Shown one piece after another: positions 58,257-64,000 of a DNA stretch of 64,000 nucleotides (position 1 is the first letter of the stretch; every line of letters starts with the position of its first letter). Both the position numbers and the translations under genes were made by a program. The notes below the pieces were generated by a model. It ran no database searches, was not told the DNA's origin, and worked only from the letters and a program-made list of their open reading frames with translations. This DNA is from Escherichia coli. Lineage in GTDB: Bacteria > Pseudomonadota > Gammaproteobacteria > Enterobacterales > Enterobacteriaceae. The DNA lies in the NCBI GenBank assembly GCA_029351405.1, contig GCA_029351405.1_4841.1, one strand, 5' to 3'.

Positions 58257-58281
58257 GGTCGTTCTCCTCTGAATAGTGTAA

Positions 58282-58289
58282 ATATTTAG
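58282..58289 (-). promoter_or_regulatory. late motif CTAAATAT
   Basis: Lies 26 nt upstream of the tube ATG. Confidence 0.5.
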
Positions 58290-58363
58290 TTTTGAAATAA
58301 ATGGGGGTTAAAATACTCCAAAGTGAAGATATTTATTATGTCATTCCCCGATAAAAATTATTC

Positions 58364-58578
58364 ATGCTGGGAACGATGAAACGCAATCCGGGTTTGTTGG
58401 ATAACATCCGACGACCGAAACTGAATGCCGCTCTTGGGTTGATAGTAAACTCAGGAAAGAGAAATTCCTTAAACTTGGATACGATGTAGAAGGTAAAACA
58501 GAGGATATGCTGGCGATAGAAGCCGGGTTGGGGCGTATCTGGGGGTGTGGTCTTATCCGGTATGAACAGGAAAACTAA
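58364..58578 (+). pseudogene. decayed gene remnant on the plus strand (possible homing-endonuclease relic)
   Basis: A 41-codon ATG ORF (MLGTMKRNPGLLDNIRRPKLNAAL...) ends at TAG 58487. An overlapping frame is open from 58405 to TAA 58576-58578 with no start (..SWVDSKLRKEKFLKLGYDVEGKTEDMLAIEAGLGRIWGCGLIRYEQEN). No SD. Confidence 0.4.
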
Positions 58579-58597
58579 AACCCCGCCTCAGCGGGGT
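58579..58597. terminator. hairpin terminator
   Basis: CCCCGCctcaGCGGGG. On the minus strand it is followed by TTTTAGTTTT. Confidence 0.7.
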
Positions 58598-58603
58598 AAA
58601 CTA

Positions 58604-58960
58604 CTATTTGCGAATGCCAACCTGAGCATAATACACATGATAATCACCGTGGGTACGGAAGCTGGTGAGGTGGAAGGTGACGAGGTGGCTCCCGAAAGCT
58701 ACAACTTTGGTATCTGGGGAGCATAAATCATTAGTTAGTTCACCCAGAACCTTACCACAAAACTCCCCAACAATAGCGTTAAATCTGTCAATGTGTGGAC
58801 TGGTCACCGTCATTGGACCAACATCTGCACAGTAGATCCCTTTTATCATCTTTCCCTGGCTGTCGCGTACTGGCTTTGCAGGCTGGTAAGGGTTGACGCG
58901 GCGTTTCAGGTTACAGAGGCCGATTTCTTTCAGGATAGCGTTAATTTCGGTCTTGGTCAT
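58604..58960 (-). CDS. hypothetical early-type protein (118 aa) inserted between the sheath and tube genes
   Basis: ATG at 58960 in the exact cassette TTGAAACGAAGGATCTATATCATG. Has its own early promoter and terminator. Confidence 0.6.
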   Translation of the reverse strand: MTKTEINAILKEIGLCNLKRRVNPYQPAKPVRDSQGKMIKGIYCADVGPMTVTSPHIDRFNAIVGEFCGKVLGELTNDLCSPDTKVVAFGSHLVTFHLTSFRTHGDYHVYYAQVGIRK

Positions 58961-59008
58961 GATATAGATCCTTCGTTTCAAGTTGGTGTCGTACTGCTTA
59001 TGTTTAGA

Positions 59009-59036
59009 ATTATACGTGAGTTATTGAAGAAGTAAA
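59009..59036 (-). promoter_or_regulatory. early promoter TTTACT-N16-TATAAT (cassette copy C)
   Basis: Minus strand reads ttattgaattacTTTACTtcttcaataactcacgTATAATtctaaacataagcagtacgacaccaac. Confidence 0.65.
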
Positions 59037-59065
59037 GTAATTCAATAAAATAATCTGGAAAATTT

Positions 59066-59088
59066 AAAACCCCGCCGAAGCGGGGTTT
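59066..59088 (-). terminator. terminator after the tail sheath gene
   Basis: AAAACCCCGCcgaaGCGGGGTTT, identical core to the hairpin at 52404-52427. Confidence 0.75.
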
Positions 59089-59093
59089 GTTTA

Positions 59094-60989
59094 TCAGGAA
59101 GCGGCTACGATACCACCGCCAGTTTCGATCTCGCTGAACTCCATGTCCGGACGTACCGCAGCAAAGTCCAGATACACCCAGTTGATGGAGTATTCTGGTT
59201 TCAGCCAGATACCCGCGACCATCTGGTTCGCAGCGATAACATCAGCGGTGTTATTGTCCTCGTCACACTTCACCATCCCGTCATAGATCGCGCCCATGTT
59301 GGCCAACTGGCGGATATATGGGCGGACAGCGTTGCTGAACAACCCACGAGTGAATGCATCGTTGTTCTCACCAAGGTAGTATTTGGCGATGGCTGCGATA
59401 TTCTGCTCTGCCATAATGAACAGACCACGAACGTTGATGCGGTCGAACGCAGATGGGCGGGTCAGGCCAGTCTTGTCGCCGTACAACACGATGCCTTCGT
59501 TGGAGAAGGTGACGATGCTGTTGATCTGGTTGCGATACAGCACAGCACGCTCATCAGAAGACGCAGACCACGCCATTCGATTATAGTTGTTGTATTTACC
59601 ACGGTTGTGGAACGCTGGAGATTTGTAGATACCCGCGATTTCAATGCTTCGCGCCCAAACACCTGCGGTGCCGCCACAAGCCGGAATCCAACGCATTTTG
59701 TCGTTGTACTTGTCGTACACATACGCCCAGTTGTCATCCATGAAGAAGTAGGAGGAGTCGCGAACAAGGCTTTCACGCCAGGCCACAACATCATCCATCT
59801 CACGGCCACGGTTTCCGACGACCGTATCGCGAAGAGGAGACACAAAGGACACTGTGTCTTTACGCTCAGTGGACAGGTCGATCAGTGCCTGCTGCTCAAT
59901 CAGTTCTTCACAGAAACCGAACACTGGCTTGGCATCATACGCTTCGGCGTTGTTCAGTGCCTGGATAGCCGCAACACGGTTCCCAGTGTAATCGTCTACA
60001 CCACCTTCGAGTTCAATGACACCAGCAGCCAGGGTAGTGGCGAAGGTGTACACCCAATTTGAGGTGCCGTTGATCACGTCTTTGAAGTACGCATTGGATC
60101 CATCAGATTTCTTAGAACCCTGAGCGGTCTGCACCAGTTCATACTTCTCGATGATCGTACCGGAAGCGCCAACAGTGGTGACGGCAGCGGTAGCAGTCAG
60201 ACCATTCGCGTCTGGAACAATCGCAGTCGCAGCCTGAGGACCGATTGCTTTGTGGGTGACGGTGACGGTGTTGGACTTCACGACAACAGAAGAATACACG
60301 TCAGACAGAGACGTCAGCGCGGTTCCGATCTTTGTCGCCAGAGTCGCCGGAGTATCAGCGTCAGTGTACGCCACGGCTTCCCCAGCAACAGAGATGGAAC
60401 CAGCAGCGGTGGCAGTACCGGATACAGAGATACGATCAACCTGGCTAACAGCGCCAGAAGAGTCTGTGATGCGACCTACTTTGTCAACGATGGCGATATG
60501 GTACTCGCCAGCCTGCGGAGCATATGCGAAGTTGTTACGGAATTCCCAGGTCGGGAACAGTGCAGCATCACAGATGTTCACAGCAATGTCGTTACCCAGA
60601 GAGCCAGCATAGCGGCCTGTCCAAGTAATAGACGCAGATGGGGACGCAGTTTCGAAGTCTAGTTTGTTGCGGATAAGGATTGCAGTCTGACCTTTGGTTA
60701 CAGCGTTGCGTGCCGCCGGACCGACCACACGGGTCACCCATGCAACAGAGCTGTAAGACAGGAAGTCAGCAATCACCAAGAAGTCGGTGGCAGTTGCATC
60801 GTTTGGCTTGAAGAATTTCTTTACCAGACCAGTTTCGCCACCAGTGACCAACACAGGGAGTTCTGCTTCACCCCATTGGAATTTGCCGACAGTCGCACCC
60901 TGAACAACAACGGATGGAGACGTCTGAAGCGTGGCATCACGCTCAGTCCACTGTACGGACGGCGCAACGCTGAAGCTTTGAGTTGCCAT
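59094..60989 (-). CDS. gp18: tail sheath protein (T4 gp18-like)
   Basis: 631 aa from the ATG at 60989 (MATQSFSV). Sits between TerL and the tube gene. C-terminal region AGIYKSPAFHNRG...GDKT is sheath-like. Confidence 0.8.
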   Translation of the reverse strand: MATQSFSVAPSVQWTERDATLQTSPSVVVQGATVGKFQWGEAELPVLVTGGETGLVKKFFKPNDATATDFLVIADFLSYSSVAWVTRVVGPAARNAVTKGQTAILIRNKLDFETASPSASITWTGRYAGSLGNDIAVNICDAALFPTWEFRNNFAYAPQAGEYHIAIVDKVGRITDSSGAVSQVDRISVSGTATAAGSISVAGEAVAYTDADTPATLATKIGTALTSLSDVYSSVVVKSNTVTVTHKAIGPQAATAIVPDANGLTATAAVTTVGASGTIIEKYELVQTAQGSKKSDGSNAYFKDVINGTSNWVYTFATTLAAGVIELEGGVDDYTGNRVAAIQALNNAEAYDAKPVFGFCEELIEQQALIDLSTERKDTVSFVSPLRDTVVGNRGREMDDVVAWRESLVRDSSYFFMDDNWAYVYDKYNDKMRWIPACGGTAGVWARSIEIAGIYKSPAFHNRGKYNNYNRMAWSASSDERAVLYRNQINSIVTFSNEGIVLYGDKTGLTRPSAFDRINVRGLFIMAEQNIAAIAKYYLGENNDAFTRGLFSNAVRPYIRQLANMGAIYDGMVKCDEDNNTADVIAANQMVAGIWLKPEYSINWVYLDFAAVRPDMEFSEIETGGGIVAAS

Positions 60990-61030
60990 AATCTTATTCC
61001 TTCTCTGTAGAGTTTCGCTCAATTTGAAAG

Positions 61031-61038
61031 ATATTTAG
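61031..61038 (-). promoter_or_regulatory. late motif CTAAATAT
   Basis: cactaaatatc, 42 nt upstream of the sheath ATG, in the gap after TerL. Confidence 0.5.
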
Positions 61039-61041
61039 TGA

Positions 61042-63252
61042 TCACCGTCTCAGCCATTCTTCCATAGACATACCAGAGTGTTCATCATAAACCTGAATTC
61101 CACCGAACCCTGGGATGTTCTCCACAGAGTGAGGATCTGGCGTCGACATCATACCCCCAAATGGTAGCATCTGTGATTCTTCCATCGCAGACAACCGTCC
61201 TCTCATGTCCGCAGAGATATTTGAATTGGTGAGATCACTAAACCATTCTTGTTTCACCGCCCATGCATACAACACGAGGGGCATTACACAGTCATCATGA
61301 CAACCATCATCGGCTTCATACCTTGTTCCAGTCCATACGAATGTACTGAGTTCATCTATCGTGTCCTGGTCATCTATCACCAGCATTTCACGTTCAATCA
61401 GGGCTTTCAGGTTGGCACAGCCGTTTGTGCGCACCTTCTTGTTGGTATTGATACCAGGTTCAGGGCGGCGACCACCGATTCTCTTGCCTGTGCCCTTGGT
61501 ATCTGTTGTGGTGAAGATGATCTCGGGATATTCAATTTCCTGGTATAGAATTGTGATTACCTGACCACCCACGTCGTTGTTGGTCTCGACTAGCATCGGG
61601 CACGTTCCATACTTCTCGCCCATATCGGCGATTGTGTACGCATACATCATTGGAGGTATCGTGTTATTTCGATACTTGGCTGCGATCTTGTGAGGATAGT
61701 CTGTGATGTCGATAATGGTCAGCACAGAATAATCCCCTTCGACACCCTTGCCTGTATCTGCGATACCCATATAGATGCGCTTAGGATCGTAGTCGTGATA
61801 AATCTTGGTGAACTCGTTCGGCTCCTGATACAGCTTCGAGGTCATCTTGTCCAGACACTTGGCAGGTATCAGTGATCCCACAGAACCACGGAACTTAATA
61901 CCAAATTCTTGATCGAAACGTGCATCACCCAGCTTCGCCCTTTGTTTGGATTCCCAGTCTGGATCTTTGGTGTACGTTGGAACACGATACCATGGGACCT
62001 CTGTGAGTTTGAAGTCGTTGTATTGTGGATGTTCTGGGTTCGCCTTGGTGACGATGTCGTAGAACAACCCGCGCTGACCTTTCGGCGTACTGGTCAGAAT
62101 ACAACGTGAAGTCTCTGCAGATGCAATCGCCGGGAATGTAGACTCCCAGAATTCAAAGTCGTTTTCAATGAACGCCACTTCGTCCACATACAGGAGCGAT
62201 ACAGATCGACCACGGATGGAGTCGGAAGATGTCGCATAGGCGTAGATCTTTGATCCGTTTTCGAACTCGATCAGCGTGGAACCGAACTTCTCACAACCCT
62301 GTTGGAGGAAGAATGGCAAATCTTGATATGCTTTGCGAATACGATCTAGGATTTCAATCGCCTGCTTCTCTTTGTTCGCCAGTACTGCGATCTCTTTGTC
62401 AGAGTGGAACATGGCATACCAGAGCAGGAACGCTGCCACGACAGTCGTGTTGTGGCTGAGGAAGCCGTTGGTGTAGTAGCGCTGATCACTAGATTTCACC
62501 TGTAGGTCATACATGTGATGCGTCTCACCAGTCTGCCAAACCTCACGGATTTCTTCTGGACCTTCTGATGTCATGATGTATGACCCAGCATTCAGGTCTT
62601 TGGCAAATATCTCCTTCATTTCCGGGGTGAAGAATATGTGTTCGTCGGCCACGTTAATTCGCCGCCCAGTAACAGTCACAATAACGAATTCCGCATATTT
62701 CTTCGTCTTATGCGCTGCGATAACCGGAACCCAGCCACTATCGGATTGCACAAAGTAACGTTTGCCGAAGCGGCTGTCCACAAACTTGTCATGGTTGCCA
62801 ATGGTATTCAGCGGCACAGCGTGATTGACGTCCTCGAAACGGCTGTGAAGCTCCCCTATGGTCAGGAGCAACTGCTCTTGGCTGAGAGTATCGTAAACTG
62901 TGACAAGCGTGTCACCTTTTACACATTTCCCAGACTGACGAGCCTGGACGACCGCATTGAATCGATAGTCCTGGAAGTCATGGAACAACTGCTTCTGATA
63001 ATCGTGCATGTCAAAGAGGATGAAGCCTTTATCGATGGTCGTGATCTTGTAGTAGTTGGCGGCGAAGTAATGGGCGTCCATCGCGCACTCGACGAACTCC
63101 GATTCCTGCTCATCTGTTAGCATCAACTCCACACGAGGAGCACGCACAGACGGCTTGCGCATGAACGTTTGGTCCATACGCAGTCTGACGTCTTCTGTCT
63201 TAAACCCCGTCTTGAGCGGGGCATATTCTACATCACGCTTCTGATACGCCAT
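61042..63252 (-). CDS. gp17: terminase large subunit (T4 gp17-like) interrupted by a mini-intein
   Basis: ATG at 63252 with SD GGAGGTG. Walker A is split (RQSGK | intein | TTVVAAF). Walker B-like LLYVDEV. C-terminal nuclease region with DDCVMP. Confidence 0.88.
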   Translation of the reverse strand: MAYQKRDVEYAPLKTGFKTEDVRLRMDQTFMRKPSVRAPRVELMLTDEQESEFVECAMDAHYFAANYYKITTIDKGFILFDMHDYQKQLFHDFQDYRFNAVVQARQSGKCVKGDTLVTVYDTLSQEQLLLTIGELHSRFEDVNHAVPLNTIGNHDKFVDSRFGKRYFVQSDSGWVPVIAAHKTKKYAEFVIVTVTGRRINVADEHIFFTPEMKEIFAKDLNAGSYIMTSEGPEEIREVWQTGETHHMYDLQVKSSDQRYYTNGFLSHNTTVVAAFLLWYAMFHSDKEIAVLANKEKQAIEILDRIRKAYQDLPFFLQQGCEKFGSTLIEFENGSKIYAYATSSDSIRGRSVSLLYVDEVAFIENDFEFWESTFPAIASAETSRCILTSTPKGQRGLFYDIVTKANPEHPQYNDFKLTEVPWYRVPTYTKDPDWESKQRAKLGDARFDQEFGIKFRGSVGSLIPAKCLDKMTSKLYQEPNEFTKIYHDYDPKRIYMGIADTGKGVEGDYSVLTIIDITDYPHKIAAKYRNNTIPPMMYAYTIADMGEKYGTCPMLVETNNDVGGQVITILYQEIEYPEIIFTTTDTKGTGKRIGGRRPEPGINTNKKVRTNGCANLKALIEREMLVIDDQDTIDELSTFVWTGTRYEADDGCHDDCVMPLVLYAWAVKQEWFSDLTNSNISADMRGRLSAMEESQMLPFGGMMSTPDPHSVENIPGFGGIQVYDEHSGMSMEEWLRR
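62449..62925 (-). mobile_element. mini-intein (159 aa) in the TerL P-loop
   Basis: Begins CVKGDTLV and ends GFLSHN, with +1 residue Thr. Block-B-like NVADEH and block F/G-like MYDLQV..YYTNGFLSHN. No endonuclease domain. Confidence 0.8.
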
Positions 63253-63949
63253 CGTCTTCACCTTCTTCCTTCGGCTCTGCCTGAACGTCGATTACATCTT
63301 CTTCGGGATCAGGTCCTTTGGATGCAGCTTTCGCTGCAGTACGTTCTTCAGCACGTTTACGGGCGTCTTCGATGGTCTTCAGTAGATCACGAGAAGACCT
63401 GGCCTGTTTACCGACGTTGACCGTGGTTGTGCCATCAGGGGACGTGGTGACCTCGACGGTTGTTTCGTCTCCAGGAGGTGGCTCTCTGTCGCCCGTGACC
63501 GCCTTGATAGTTTTCTGGTTCTCCATCAGGTCTTTGTTCAGACCGCGCATGAGTTCACCCAACTCTTTGAAGACTGTGAAAGCACGGGGTGCTTCAGTCG
63601 TCGTCGCAAGTTTGGCTGCCTGTCCCATCATGAACATCGTGGCTTCCTGCATGGCATAAGTCGTGTCACGGATGCGTTTGTAGTCGGTGGTGGCATCAGT
63701 GTCTTCGAAGTCTGGAACCTTAGATTCCTTGGGCTTCAGCTCTTCTGGGTCCAATGAAGGAGGAAACACCACAGGCTCATACCCCGCAGTCTCATACCCC
63801 GCAGGCTTTTCACCCAACCATTCGCCTGTATCCGGATCGTAATCTTTTCCGGCCATAGGCGAGGTCTTCTCCATGACTTCTTGAGCGACCTCATCCCGCG
63901 CTTGGATAGCACTGAGGGTGGATAATAGGCGTTCTGACATAGCACTCAT
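63233..63949 (-). CDS. gp16: terminase small subunit (T4 gp16-like)
   Basis: DYKRIRDTTYAMQEATMFMMGQAAKLATTTEAPRAFTVFKELGELMRGLNKDL parallels T4 gp16 [54 protein letters not shown]. ATG at 63949 with SD GGAG. Confidence 0.7.
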   Translation of the reverse strand: MSAMSERLLSTLSAIQARDEVAQEVMEKTSPMAGKDYDPDTGEWLGEKPAGYETAGYEPVVFPPSLDPEELKPKESKVPDFEDTDATTDYKRIRDTTYAMQEATMFMMGQAAKLATTTEAPRAFTVFKELGELMRGLNKDLMENQKTIKAVTGDREPPPGDETTVEVTTSPDGTTTVNVGKQARSSRDLLKTIEDARKRAEERTAAKAASKGPDPEEDVIDVQAEPKEEGEDDGVSEA

Positions 63950-63951
63950 AA

Positions 63952-64000
63952 TCAATCTCCAGGATGATGTACACCGTCTTTGTCAACACGGAACCACTCC
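63952..64000 (-). CDS. 3' end of an unidentified upstream gene (partial)
   Basis: An open frame ..EWFRVDKDGVHHPGD ends at TGA 63952-63954. The rest lies outside the window. Confidence 0.3.
   Translation of the reverse strand, partial: EWFRVDKDGVHHPGD

Follow-up and report, generated by a model that had tools for sequence, protein, structure and literature searches.

The 64,000-nucleotide (nt) stretch of Escherichia coli DNA analysed here (assembly GCA_029351405.1, contig GCA_029351405.1_4841.1; hereafter the window) carries on its minus strand a gene for the large terminase subunit (TerL), whose product is interrupted in the middle of its ATP-binding P-loop by a block of 159 amino acids (aa). 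The question that this locus raises is what the block is, and how a terminase that carries it could package DNA. We find that it is very probably a canonical class-1 mini-intein at the 'classic' P-loop site, which leaves an 85-kDa precursor by splicing to give a functional TerL, does not home, and moves by homologous recombination. An earlier note, made from the sequence alone, had placed a mini-intein at 62449-62925, starting with Cys, ending in His-Asn and followed by Thr as +1 residue, and translation bears this out to the base: positions 62449..62925 of the minus strand (477 nt) encode 159 aa, CVKGDTLVTV...GFLSHN, with QARQSGK before and TTVVA after, and the insertion point falls exactly between the Walker A Lys and Thr. 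The N-extein (62926..63252, minus strand; 109 aa) ends in the first half of Walker A (...VVQARQSGK) and aligns to the SRQLGK of T4 gp17 and to intein-less relatives. The C-extein (61045..62448, minus strand; 468 aa), with Walker B (LLYVDE) and the nuclease domain, opens with the +1 Thr (62446..62448), which is the Walker A Thr. Deleting the block from the window TerL gives QARQSGKTTVVAAF, a spliced protein of 577 aa with the predicted junction …RQSGKTTVVAAF…; precursor, spliced product and intein have predicted masses of 84.8, 66.6 and 18.2 kDa, respectively. The peptide TTVVAAFLLWYAMFHSDK would be fully tryptic only when spliced, with Lys preceding it, the preceding residue in the precursor being Asn.

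In a MAFFT alignment, T4 gp17 (SRQLGK followed by TTVVA) and the TerL of Vibrio phage K414 (RQSGK followed by TTVVA) run ungapped through the insertion point, where the window protein and ten other Ackermannviridae TerLs have 159-179 extra residues. Closer intein-less TerLs were sought with the full-length TerL as query among 5.8 billion proteins. One of them, P0015 (576 aa), is 85% identical to the window protein over the C-extein, P0016-P0019 are 74-78% identical, and all read VVQARQSGKTTVVAAFLLWYA. Two of these lie on contigs with the same gp13-gp14-gp15-terS-terL-sheath order, and at the DNA level the empty site in the intein-less contigs is clean, with 73-75 of the 90 flanking bases identical to the window. 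The spliced window sequence also aligns unbroken across the junction, through SRQLGKTTVVA, to the solved T4 gp17 (3EZK, 3CPE; E 3e-72 to ~1e-71). The block is an in-frame insertion at a conserved site, absent from orthologues, and its removal restores the host motif, as the earlier note had predicted for the Walker A of the terminase. The same note put the TerL at about 130-160 aa longer than T4 gp17, which needs correction: the excess over gp17 itself (610 aa) is 126 aa, and that over the nearest intein-less relatives (575-581 aa) is 155-161 aa.

As for the identity of the inserted block, it is matched by the Pfam family Intein_splicing (PF14890; E=1.6e-8, 35.0 bits) and by the NCBIfam model TIGR01445 intein_Nterm, the latter at 25.1 bits and above its cut-off of 24.5, while TIGR01443 intein_Cterm gives a weak match (11.9-12.9 bits against a cut-off of 15.6). 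Overall, the similarity to inteins goes well past what chance would give. No Pfam domain outside the HINT families was matched in the 159 aa. The nearest sequences in the PDB are all inteins, namely the Cat consensus (E=0.009), the CDC21 intein, VidaL (E=0.06), gp41-1 and Mxe GyrA. A word-indexed protein search with the intein only returned two matches (the RefSeq 'intein' of phages Marshall and Maynard, and one fragment) and was too insensitive, in contrast to the informative searches with full-length TerL and with profiles.

We extracted 34 TerLs with an insert of 150-447 aa at the same Lys/Thr site and aligned the 30 distinct inserts shorter than 200 aa, which go down to 28% identity. Fourteen columns are invariant in these 30 homologues: C1, K47, G64, T74, A93, D94, H96, M138, D140, T152, L156, S157, H158 and N159. 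The motifs of an intein can be followed along them, all on the minus strand. Block A (CVKGDTLVTVYDT; 62887..62925) begins with Cys1 (62923..62925), the first nucleophile, and its V2 and T6 are found in at least 90% of the homologues. The core of block B, A93-D94-E95-H96 (62638..62649), keeps the His and has Ala in place of the canonical Thr; in the window intein this block reads NVADEH, its aligned counterparts being SDNH in the Cat intein and AFNH in VidaL. Block F (MYDLQV), which contains Asp140, occupies 62497..62514, and block G ends in Ser157-His158-Asn159 (62449..62457), Asn159 being the cyclising residue. The residue at +1 is Thr in 32 of the 34 TerLs and Ser in the remaining two. The block B-like and block F/G-like motifs and the +1 nucleophile singled out in the earlier note are thus upheld, their catalytic residues being invariant or nearly so.

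The AlphaFold model of the intein, computed with the 30-homologue alignment, is confident (predicted local distance difference test score, pLDDT, 95.7; predicted template modelling score, pTM, 0.88) and describes a HINT domain that is all-beta but for two short helices; a second domain is absent. When this model was compared with the PDB by Foldseek, the top 50 matches were all inteins or BIL domains, among them VidaL (E=8e-11), the TFIIB Mvu mini-intein (template modelling score, TM, 0.81) and the Pyrococcus horikoshii RadA intein (TM 0.78-0.79). No LAGLIDADG, HNH or other endonuclease domain is present in the intein, whose 159 aa make up one HINT domain in which 41 residues separate H96 from M138; the earlier claim that there is no room for such a domain stands. 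The ratio of nonsynonymous to synonymous substitutions (dN/dS, Nei-Gojobori) of the intein is 0.04-0.20, indicative of purifying selection, and its dN is several-fold above that of the exteins. In phage records from separate isolates the intein recurs at 99-100% identity. The 477-nt block can thereby be assigned, from its sequence features, to the class-1 mini-inteins without a homing endonuclease.

From the precise insertion, HINT fold, conserved catalytic residues, purifying selection and intein-less orthologues observed here we infer splicing and its chemistry, and the TerL intein is almost certainly active. TerL would be translated as an 85-kDa precursor with a split Walker A (…RQSGK, intein, TTVVA…). 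An N-S acyl shift at Cys1, aided by His96 of block B, would then produce a thioester, which would be attacked by the +1 Thr in a transesterification leading to a branched intermediate. Asn159, aided by His158 and Asp140, would cyclise to a succinimide and release the 18-kDa intein, and an O-N shift would restore a normal peptide bond, yielding a 66-kDa TerL with an intact GKT P-loop, able to hydrolyse ATP and package DNA. Splicing appears to be necessary because no P-loop can form while 159 residues separate the Walker A Lys from the Thr, because the related complete genomes, which come from plaque-forming isolates, have a single TerL locus each, and because T4 gp17 needs its Walker A site to package DNA, as was reportedly established by Rao and co-workers. 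DNA packaging would hence depend on TerL splicing. Being free of an endonuclease, the intein would pass between alleles by ordinary homologous recombination, and it may persist without homing because almost every allele in the gene pool already carries it.

Published mass spectrometry of a related phage bears on this point. In a paper on Vi01-like phages published in 2024, Supplementary Table S3 reports liquid chromatography-tandem mass spectrometry of CsCl-purified virions of Kuttervirus Sajous1, in which gp148, 'terminase large subunit', is represented by four spectra (PMC10892097). These correspond to EYAEYVVR (76-83), RFEGPNHAVPLNTIGNHNK (29-47), FEGPNHAVPLNTIGNHNK (30-47) and YFVESDTGWVPVIAAHK (57-73), in intein residue numbers; all four fall inside the intein and none in the 577 aa of the exteins. 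Since they map there, the intein polypeptide is translated. Of the 32 theoretical tryptic peptides that the precursor would yield in the 7-30 aa range, only 5 belong to the intein, and the chance of three distinct regions all lying within it is about 0.004, a crude figure, as peptides differ in detectability. The distribution suggests an intein separate from its exteins, as is expected after excision, and agrees with a free and stable excised intein co-purifying with the virions. The authors pass no comment on the intein-only spectra (PMC10892097), and this signal appears to be unreported. Proteomic evidence was also sought in the papers on phages phiD3 and LIMEstone; neither of them mentions the intein, and TerL detection is absent from them as far as their text shows.

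Several points weigh against the identification of the block as an active mini-intein. The PF14890 score lies 0.8 bit under the gathering score of 35.8. The textbook TxxH of block B has Ala93 at the position of the Thr, the sole departure from the textbook intein motif set. The Sajous1 evidence amounts to four spectra, a low count that makes it supportive and not proof, and no splicing test of any Ackermannviridae TerL intein was found in the searchable literature. Furthermore, the window intein derives from two alleles (see below), and such a chimeric origin could in principle impair it. We read the block-B Ala as a probable trait of the family rather than a sign of decay, because it is invariant across the family, as is His96, and because it is present in the active VidaL intein, the solved structure of which has A-F-N-H there. 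Impairment by chimerism is countered by the separate-isolate phage records that carry the intein at 99-100% identity.

A different view of the same element is that its splicing is conditional, acting as a post-translational switch that delays or tunes the terminase ATPase in response to redox state, temperature, DNA or the small subunit. This would explain the near-fixation of the intein in enterobacterial Ackermannviridae, essentially all TerLs of which carry it in the phage collection that we searched, and would agree with the purifying selection, with the regulatory roles proposed for P-loop inteins (Kelley et al., 2016; PMC5050341) and with the seeming enrichment of the excised intein over the extein in the virion preparation. 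Yet, fixation and purifying selection are equally expected of a selfish element in an essential site with no empty alleles left, where splicing defects are lethal. Moreover, the intein has a single Cys (Cys1), so that no internal disulfide trap is possible, intein-less relatives of this phage group exist in the same gene order, and those mycobacteriophage terminase inteins that have been assayed in a reporter spliced readily (PMC5050341). We therefore regard a conditional switch as unlikely. A function of its own could also reside in the 18-kDa intein after its release, or in the moment at which it is released, either gating the onset of packaging or, once splicing is done, associating with capsids or DNA. 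This is considered because the intein is nearly fixed, is subject to purifying selection and moves between genera as a cassette, and because in the only virion proteome published its peptides were recovered without extein peptides; the prospect is a slim one.

It is very improbable that the block is instead a domesticated HINT-like domain which stays in the mature terminase, or which cleaves without ligating. HINT domains of the BIL, PT-HINT and Hedgehog types do cleave without ligation, several Dickeya phage records name the protein 'pretoxin HINT domain protein', and BIL2 is among the fold matches. However, the PT-HINT family (PF07591) matches the block at 16.2 bits (E=0.013) against a gathering score of 27.7, and all 34 TerLs retain a +1 nucleophile, for which BIL domains have no need. 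The insert splits the Walker A Lys-Thr pair needed for packaging in T4 gp17; it sits in the most conserved motif of a conserved protein and not in a variable region, and orthologues without it exist. Cleavage without ligation would leave two fragments with half a P-loop each, and a retained domain does not sit well with Sajous1 spectra that all come from the intein. An interruption at the nucleic-acid level (group I intron, inserted homing-endonuclease gene or assembly artefact), to which the many introns and free-standing endonuclease genes of relatives, one directly upstream of terL, and some distant TerL open reading frames (ORFs) running into a GIY-YIG ORF might point, has a negligible probability in view of the uninterrupted in-frame reading frame, the protein-level conservation with dN/dS well below 1, the confident HINT fold, the lack of any Rfam family at E<=1 in 60500..64000 and the 99-100% identity between records of separate isolates.

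Returning to the mini-intein, its sequence in the window is a mosaic. An informative-site scan and the identity in a 60-nt sliding window, together with per-segment identities, delimit a 423-nt patch of Kuttervirus (SE14) type in a terL of Agtrevirus (Ag3) type, at 62546..62968 on the minus strand. Inside it, 102 of the 109 informative sites agree with SE14, and outside it 484 of 566 agree with Ag3 (Fisher p=3.8e-60). Its upstream boundary falls in conserved P-loop coding sequence of the N-extein, 43 nt ahead of the intein, and its downstream boundary in the conserved block F/G region, so that the first ~380 nt of the intein belong to the patch and the final 97 nt do not. Compared with Ag3, the intein is 74.8% identical at the aa and 77.8% at the nt level and the C-extein 97.0% and 90.4%; compared with SE14, the respective values are 96.9% and 92.2% for the intein and 86.1% and 76.3% for the C-extein. 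The window intein thus reads as a chimera of Kuttervirus and Agtrevirus alleles, with the first ~127 residues of SE14 type and the last ~32 of Ag3 type, a chimerism that appears to be unreported. The patch as the footprint of homing into an empty site was considered and rejected: its downstream boundary lies inside the intein, and therefore recombination would have taken place between two intein-bearing alleles.

Kuttervirus itself holds two intein alleles, SE14-type and Mooltan-type, which are ~76% identical. A second chimeric intein is found in Salmonella phage LPST94 (L007 3001-3477), the N half being 98.7% identical to the window/SE14 allele and the C half of Mooltan type and 71.6% identical to the window. 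Judging by these patterns, intein alleles seem to recombine within Kuttervirus too.

The TerL intein as such has been known for Ackermannviridae phages since 2013, when the genome announcements of Salmonella phages Marshall and Maynard stated, on InterPro evidence, that the large terminase "is interrupted by an intein"; the announcements of Mooltan (2019) and Klebsiella phage Magnus (2019) make the same statement. In the GenBank record of Salmonella phage Mooltan the homologous 477 nt are annotated as mat_peptide "intein", and the 159-aa 'intein' YP_008772116.1 of Marshall/Maynard in nr/RefSeq is 76% identical to that of the window. The element of these Vi01-like phages is the same one, with the same gene, Lys/Thr site and 159-aa length. 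The window copy shares 76% identity with the allele of Marshall, Maynard and Mooltan and 96-97% with the Kuttervirus allele of SE14 type, and differs from the published inteins in being chimeric and located in an Agtrevirus-type TerL. The published notes rest on InterPro domain hits only, with no splice-site analysis, allele comparison or experiment. Recognition of the intein from raw sequence is confirmed for an element already documented, and what is added here, the mosaic of alleles and the mass-spectrometry signal confined to the intein, is modest. In other records the intein seems to have misled annotation: the TerL is labelled 'pretoxin HINT domain protein' in the Dickeya phage records KM209228, KM209320 and KJ716335 and 'hypothetical protein' in several others, labels that we take for probable annotation errors caused by the intein.

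Among inteins of other phages, a close parallel is offered by mycobacteriophages, in which terminase is the main intein host (Kelley et al., 2016 mBio; PMC5050341). Their TerL1-a intein lies between the invariant Walker A Lys and the nucleophilic Thr, the 'classic' P-loop insertion, and five further terminase inteins (sites b, c, e, f and g) were shown to splice (PMC5050341). The window intein resembles TerL1-a in its location in the ATPase domain of a large terminase at the Lys/Thr site, where activity and pentamer assembly depend on splicing, as the authors argue. The mycobacteriophage inteins differ in their Terminase_1-type actinophage hosts, in the C-motif location of the Terminase_6 example (site f) and in the active endonucleases that several carry, whereas the window element is a mini-intein in a T4-type Terminase_6 host, known here from sequence.

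VidaL (6VGV) and the Cat consensus (6DSL), relatives of atypically split TerL inteins, are among the nearest solved structures by sequence, VidaL also by fold, and share with the window intein the end …YDL.V….YYTNG(I/F)(V/L)SHN. Split TerL inteins act in trans and are encoded by two genes, while that of the window is contiguous, though its family has many naturally split members. AceL-TerL, GOS-TerL and Cat-TerL are listed with a +1 Cys (review PMC11766414), in contrast to the +1 Thr of the window, and may occupy another TerL site; a shared insertion site with AceL-TerL and GOS-TerL is not claimed, given their listed +1 Cys. BIL and PT-HINT domains have the HINT fold in common with the window block, as reflected in the weak PF07591 match and the BIL2 structure matches, but the block scores below threshold, lies in a conserved catalytic motif, has a conserved +1 nucleophile and a His-Asn end, and is lacking from intein-less orthologues.

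The RadA intein of Pyrococcus horikoshii likewise sits between the P-loop Lys and a +1 Thr. Its structure (PDB 4E2T/4E2U) is close to the predicted fold, at ~16% sequence identity and in another host protein and domain of life.

In the phage collection, a homologue of the intein occurs in 310 records, 285 of them at a coverage of at least 80%, and among the matches listed all are in TerL. The hosts of these phages include Salmonella, Klebsiella, Escherichia, Dickeya, Serratia, Shigella and Enterobacter, and more distant copies are found in Vibrio VAP7, Campylobacter CP20/CP21, Delftia PhiW-14 and Agrobacterium Atu_ph07. When 1.84 billion cluster representatives were searched with a profile, there were 367 matches at E<=1e-30 and 1140 at E<=1e-10. 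Many of the best ones (about half of the top 150) start at profile position ~38-48 within the first few residues of the protein. Such proteins are, as far as their sequences can tell, naturally split inteins, in which the C-fragment would begin just before the invariant K47-F48 (…RKFVDS…) and a short N-fragment would be encoded elsewhere. Examples of the split form are P0130, P0133, P0195, P0208, P0222 and Delftia phage PhiW-14 (L016 2396-4198); in PhiW-14 the annotated TerL begins mid-intein and ~500 nt after terS are unannotated. The loop of residues 33-46 (window 62788..62829, minus strand), from the second helix to K47-F48, is both the hot spot of the family and its natural split site. It holds 10-25 extra residues in Vibrio-type inteins and ~270-290 in P0054, P0060, P0064 and P0171, distant metagenomic P-loop inteins in whose large loop inserts no Pfam domain was matched. 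This position differs from the usual one of a homing endonuclease between blocks B and F.

In some Aglimvirinae, a free-standing endonuclease gene is located between terS and terL, ~330 nt from the intein site (SKML-39, L005 1809-2687; Dickeya Ds25CZ, L010 1809-2687). These genes are labelled NUMOD3 or 'F-LimIX', and MobE-like GIY-YIG in LIMEstone1. An endonuclease gene of this kind could drive co-conversion of the endonuclease-free intein. Many distant metagenomic T4-type TerLs have a second intein just before Walker B, which follows …IRG(K/R)S, starts with Cys, ends in His-Asn and is followed by a further Cys, and sometimes a third one further on; the second is present in P0050, P0084, P0105, P0096, P0123, P0126, P0130, P0133 and P0173. 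That of P0084 has a weak, below-threshold SegE-like GIY-YIG match (E=1.3e-4), a type of endonuclease that would be unusual in an intein. In P0052, P0056 and P0059 (Vibrio phage VP-1 TerL) the P-loop intein is present, and after …FDQE(F/Y)xC a GIY-YIG sequence replaces the nuclease domain. This arrangement suggests that terL is split there by an intron or an endonuclease gene and was read through by gene callers.

TerL is a standard marker in phage phylogeny and taxonomy. Trees and identity thresholds derived from unspliced TerL are distorted because the 477-nt insert evolves faster than the host gene and recombines independently of it; an intein identity of 75% can go with an extein identity of 97%, and the converse is found as well. 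In turn, the Ackermannviridae provide many natural alleles of endonuclease-free mini-inteins, chimeras among them, in which persistence and exchange without homing could be studied, and they are a possible source of compact Thr+1 inteins as tools.

The minus strand around terL encodes a T4-type packaging and tail module, with the small terminase at 63233..63955, the large terminase at 61042..63261 and the tail sheath at 59094..61022. The bounds given for the large terminase are those of the mechanically called ORF, 739 aa from a GTG at 63261 (VKTMAYQ…), three codons upstream of an ATG at 63252. The true product is probably of 736 aa (gene 61042..63252, stop codon 61042..61044), because all TerL homologues and the annotation of AV101 begin at the equivalent of this ATG (MAYQKRD). 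The protein matches Terminase_6N (PF03237; E=2.8e-17) and Terminase_6C (PF17289; E=1.2e-6) and has the layout of the T4-type (Terminase_6, gp17-like) enzymes, i.e., an N-terminal ATPase with Walker A and B and a C-terminal RNase H-like nuclease, in terS-terL-sheath synteny. It is 99.5% identical to the TerL of Escherichia phages A221, RPN242 and LHE287, 99.2% to that of AV101 (Aglimvirinae) and 91.7% to that of Shigella phage Ag3 (Agtrevirus). The window is from an Ackermannviridae (Agtrevirus-like) phage.

The small terminase gene (gp16-like; 63233..63955, minus strand), the homologues of which are annotated as terminase small subunit in Ag3, SE14, Mooltan and AV101, overlaps the start of terL. 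There is therefore no room in the window for the free-standing endonuclease gene found there in some relatives, and none was detected between terS and terL in the ORF list. An antisense ORF of 160 codons (62638..63120, plus strand), known from the mechanical ORF list only, overlaps the intein and N-extein. Further along the module, between the tail-sheath and tail-tube genes, lies a stretch of ~840 nt (58257..59093), in which inspection by eye revealed no recognisable endonuclease gene. It holds one ORF of 125 aa (58604..58981, minus strand), and at the corresponding position AV101 is annotated with a hypothetical protein of 232 aa.

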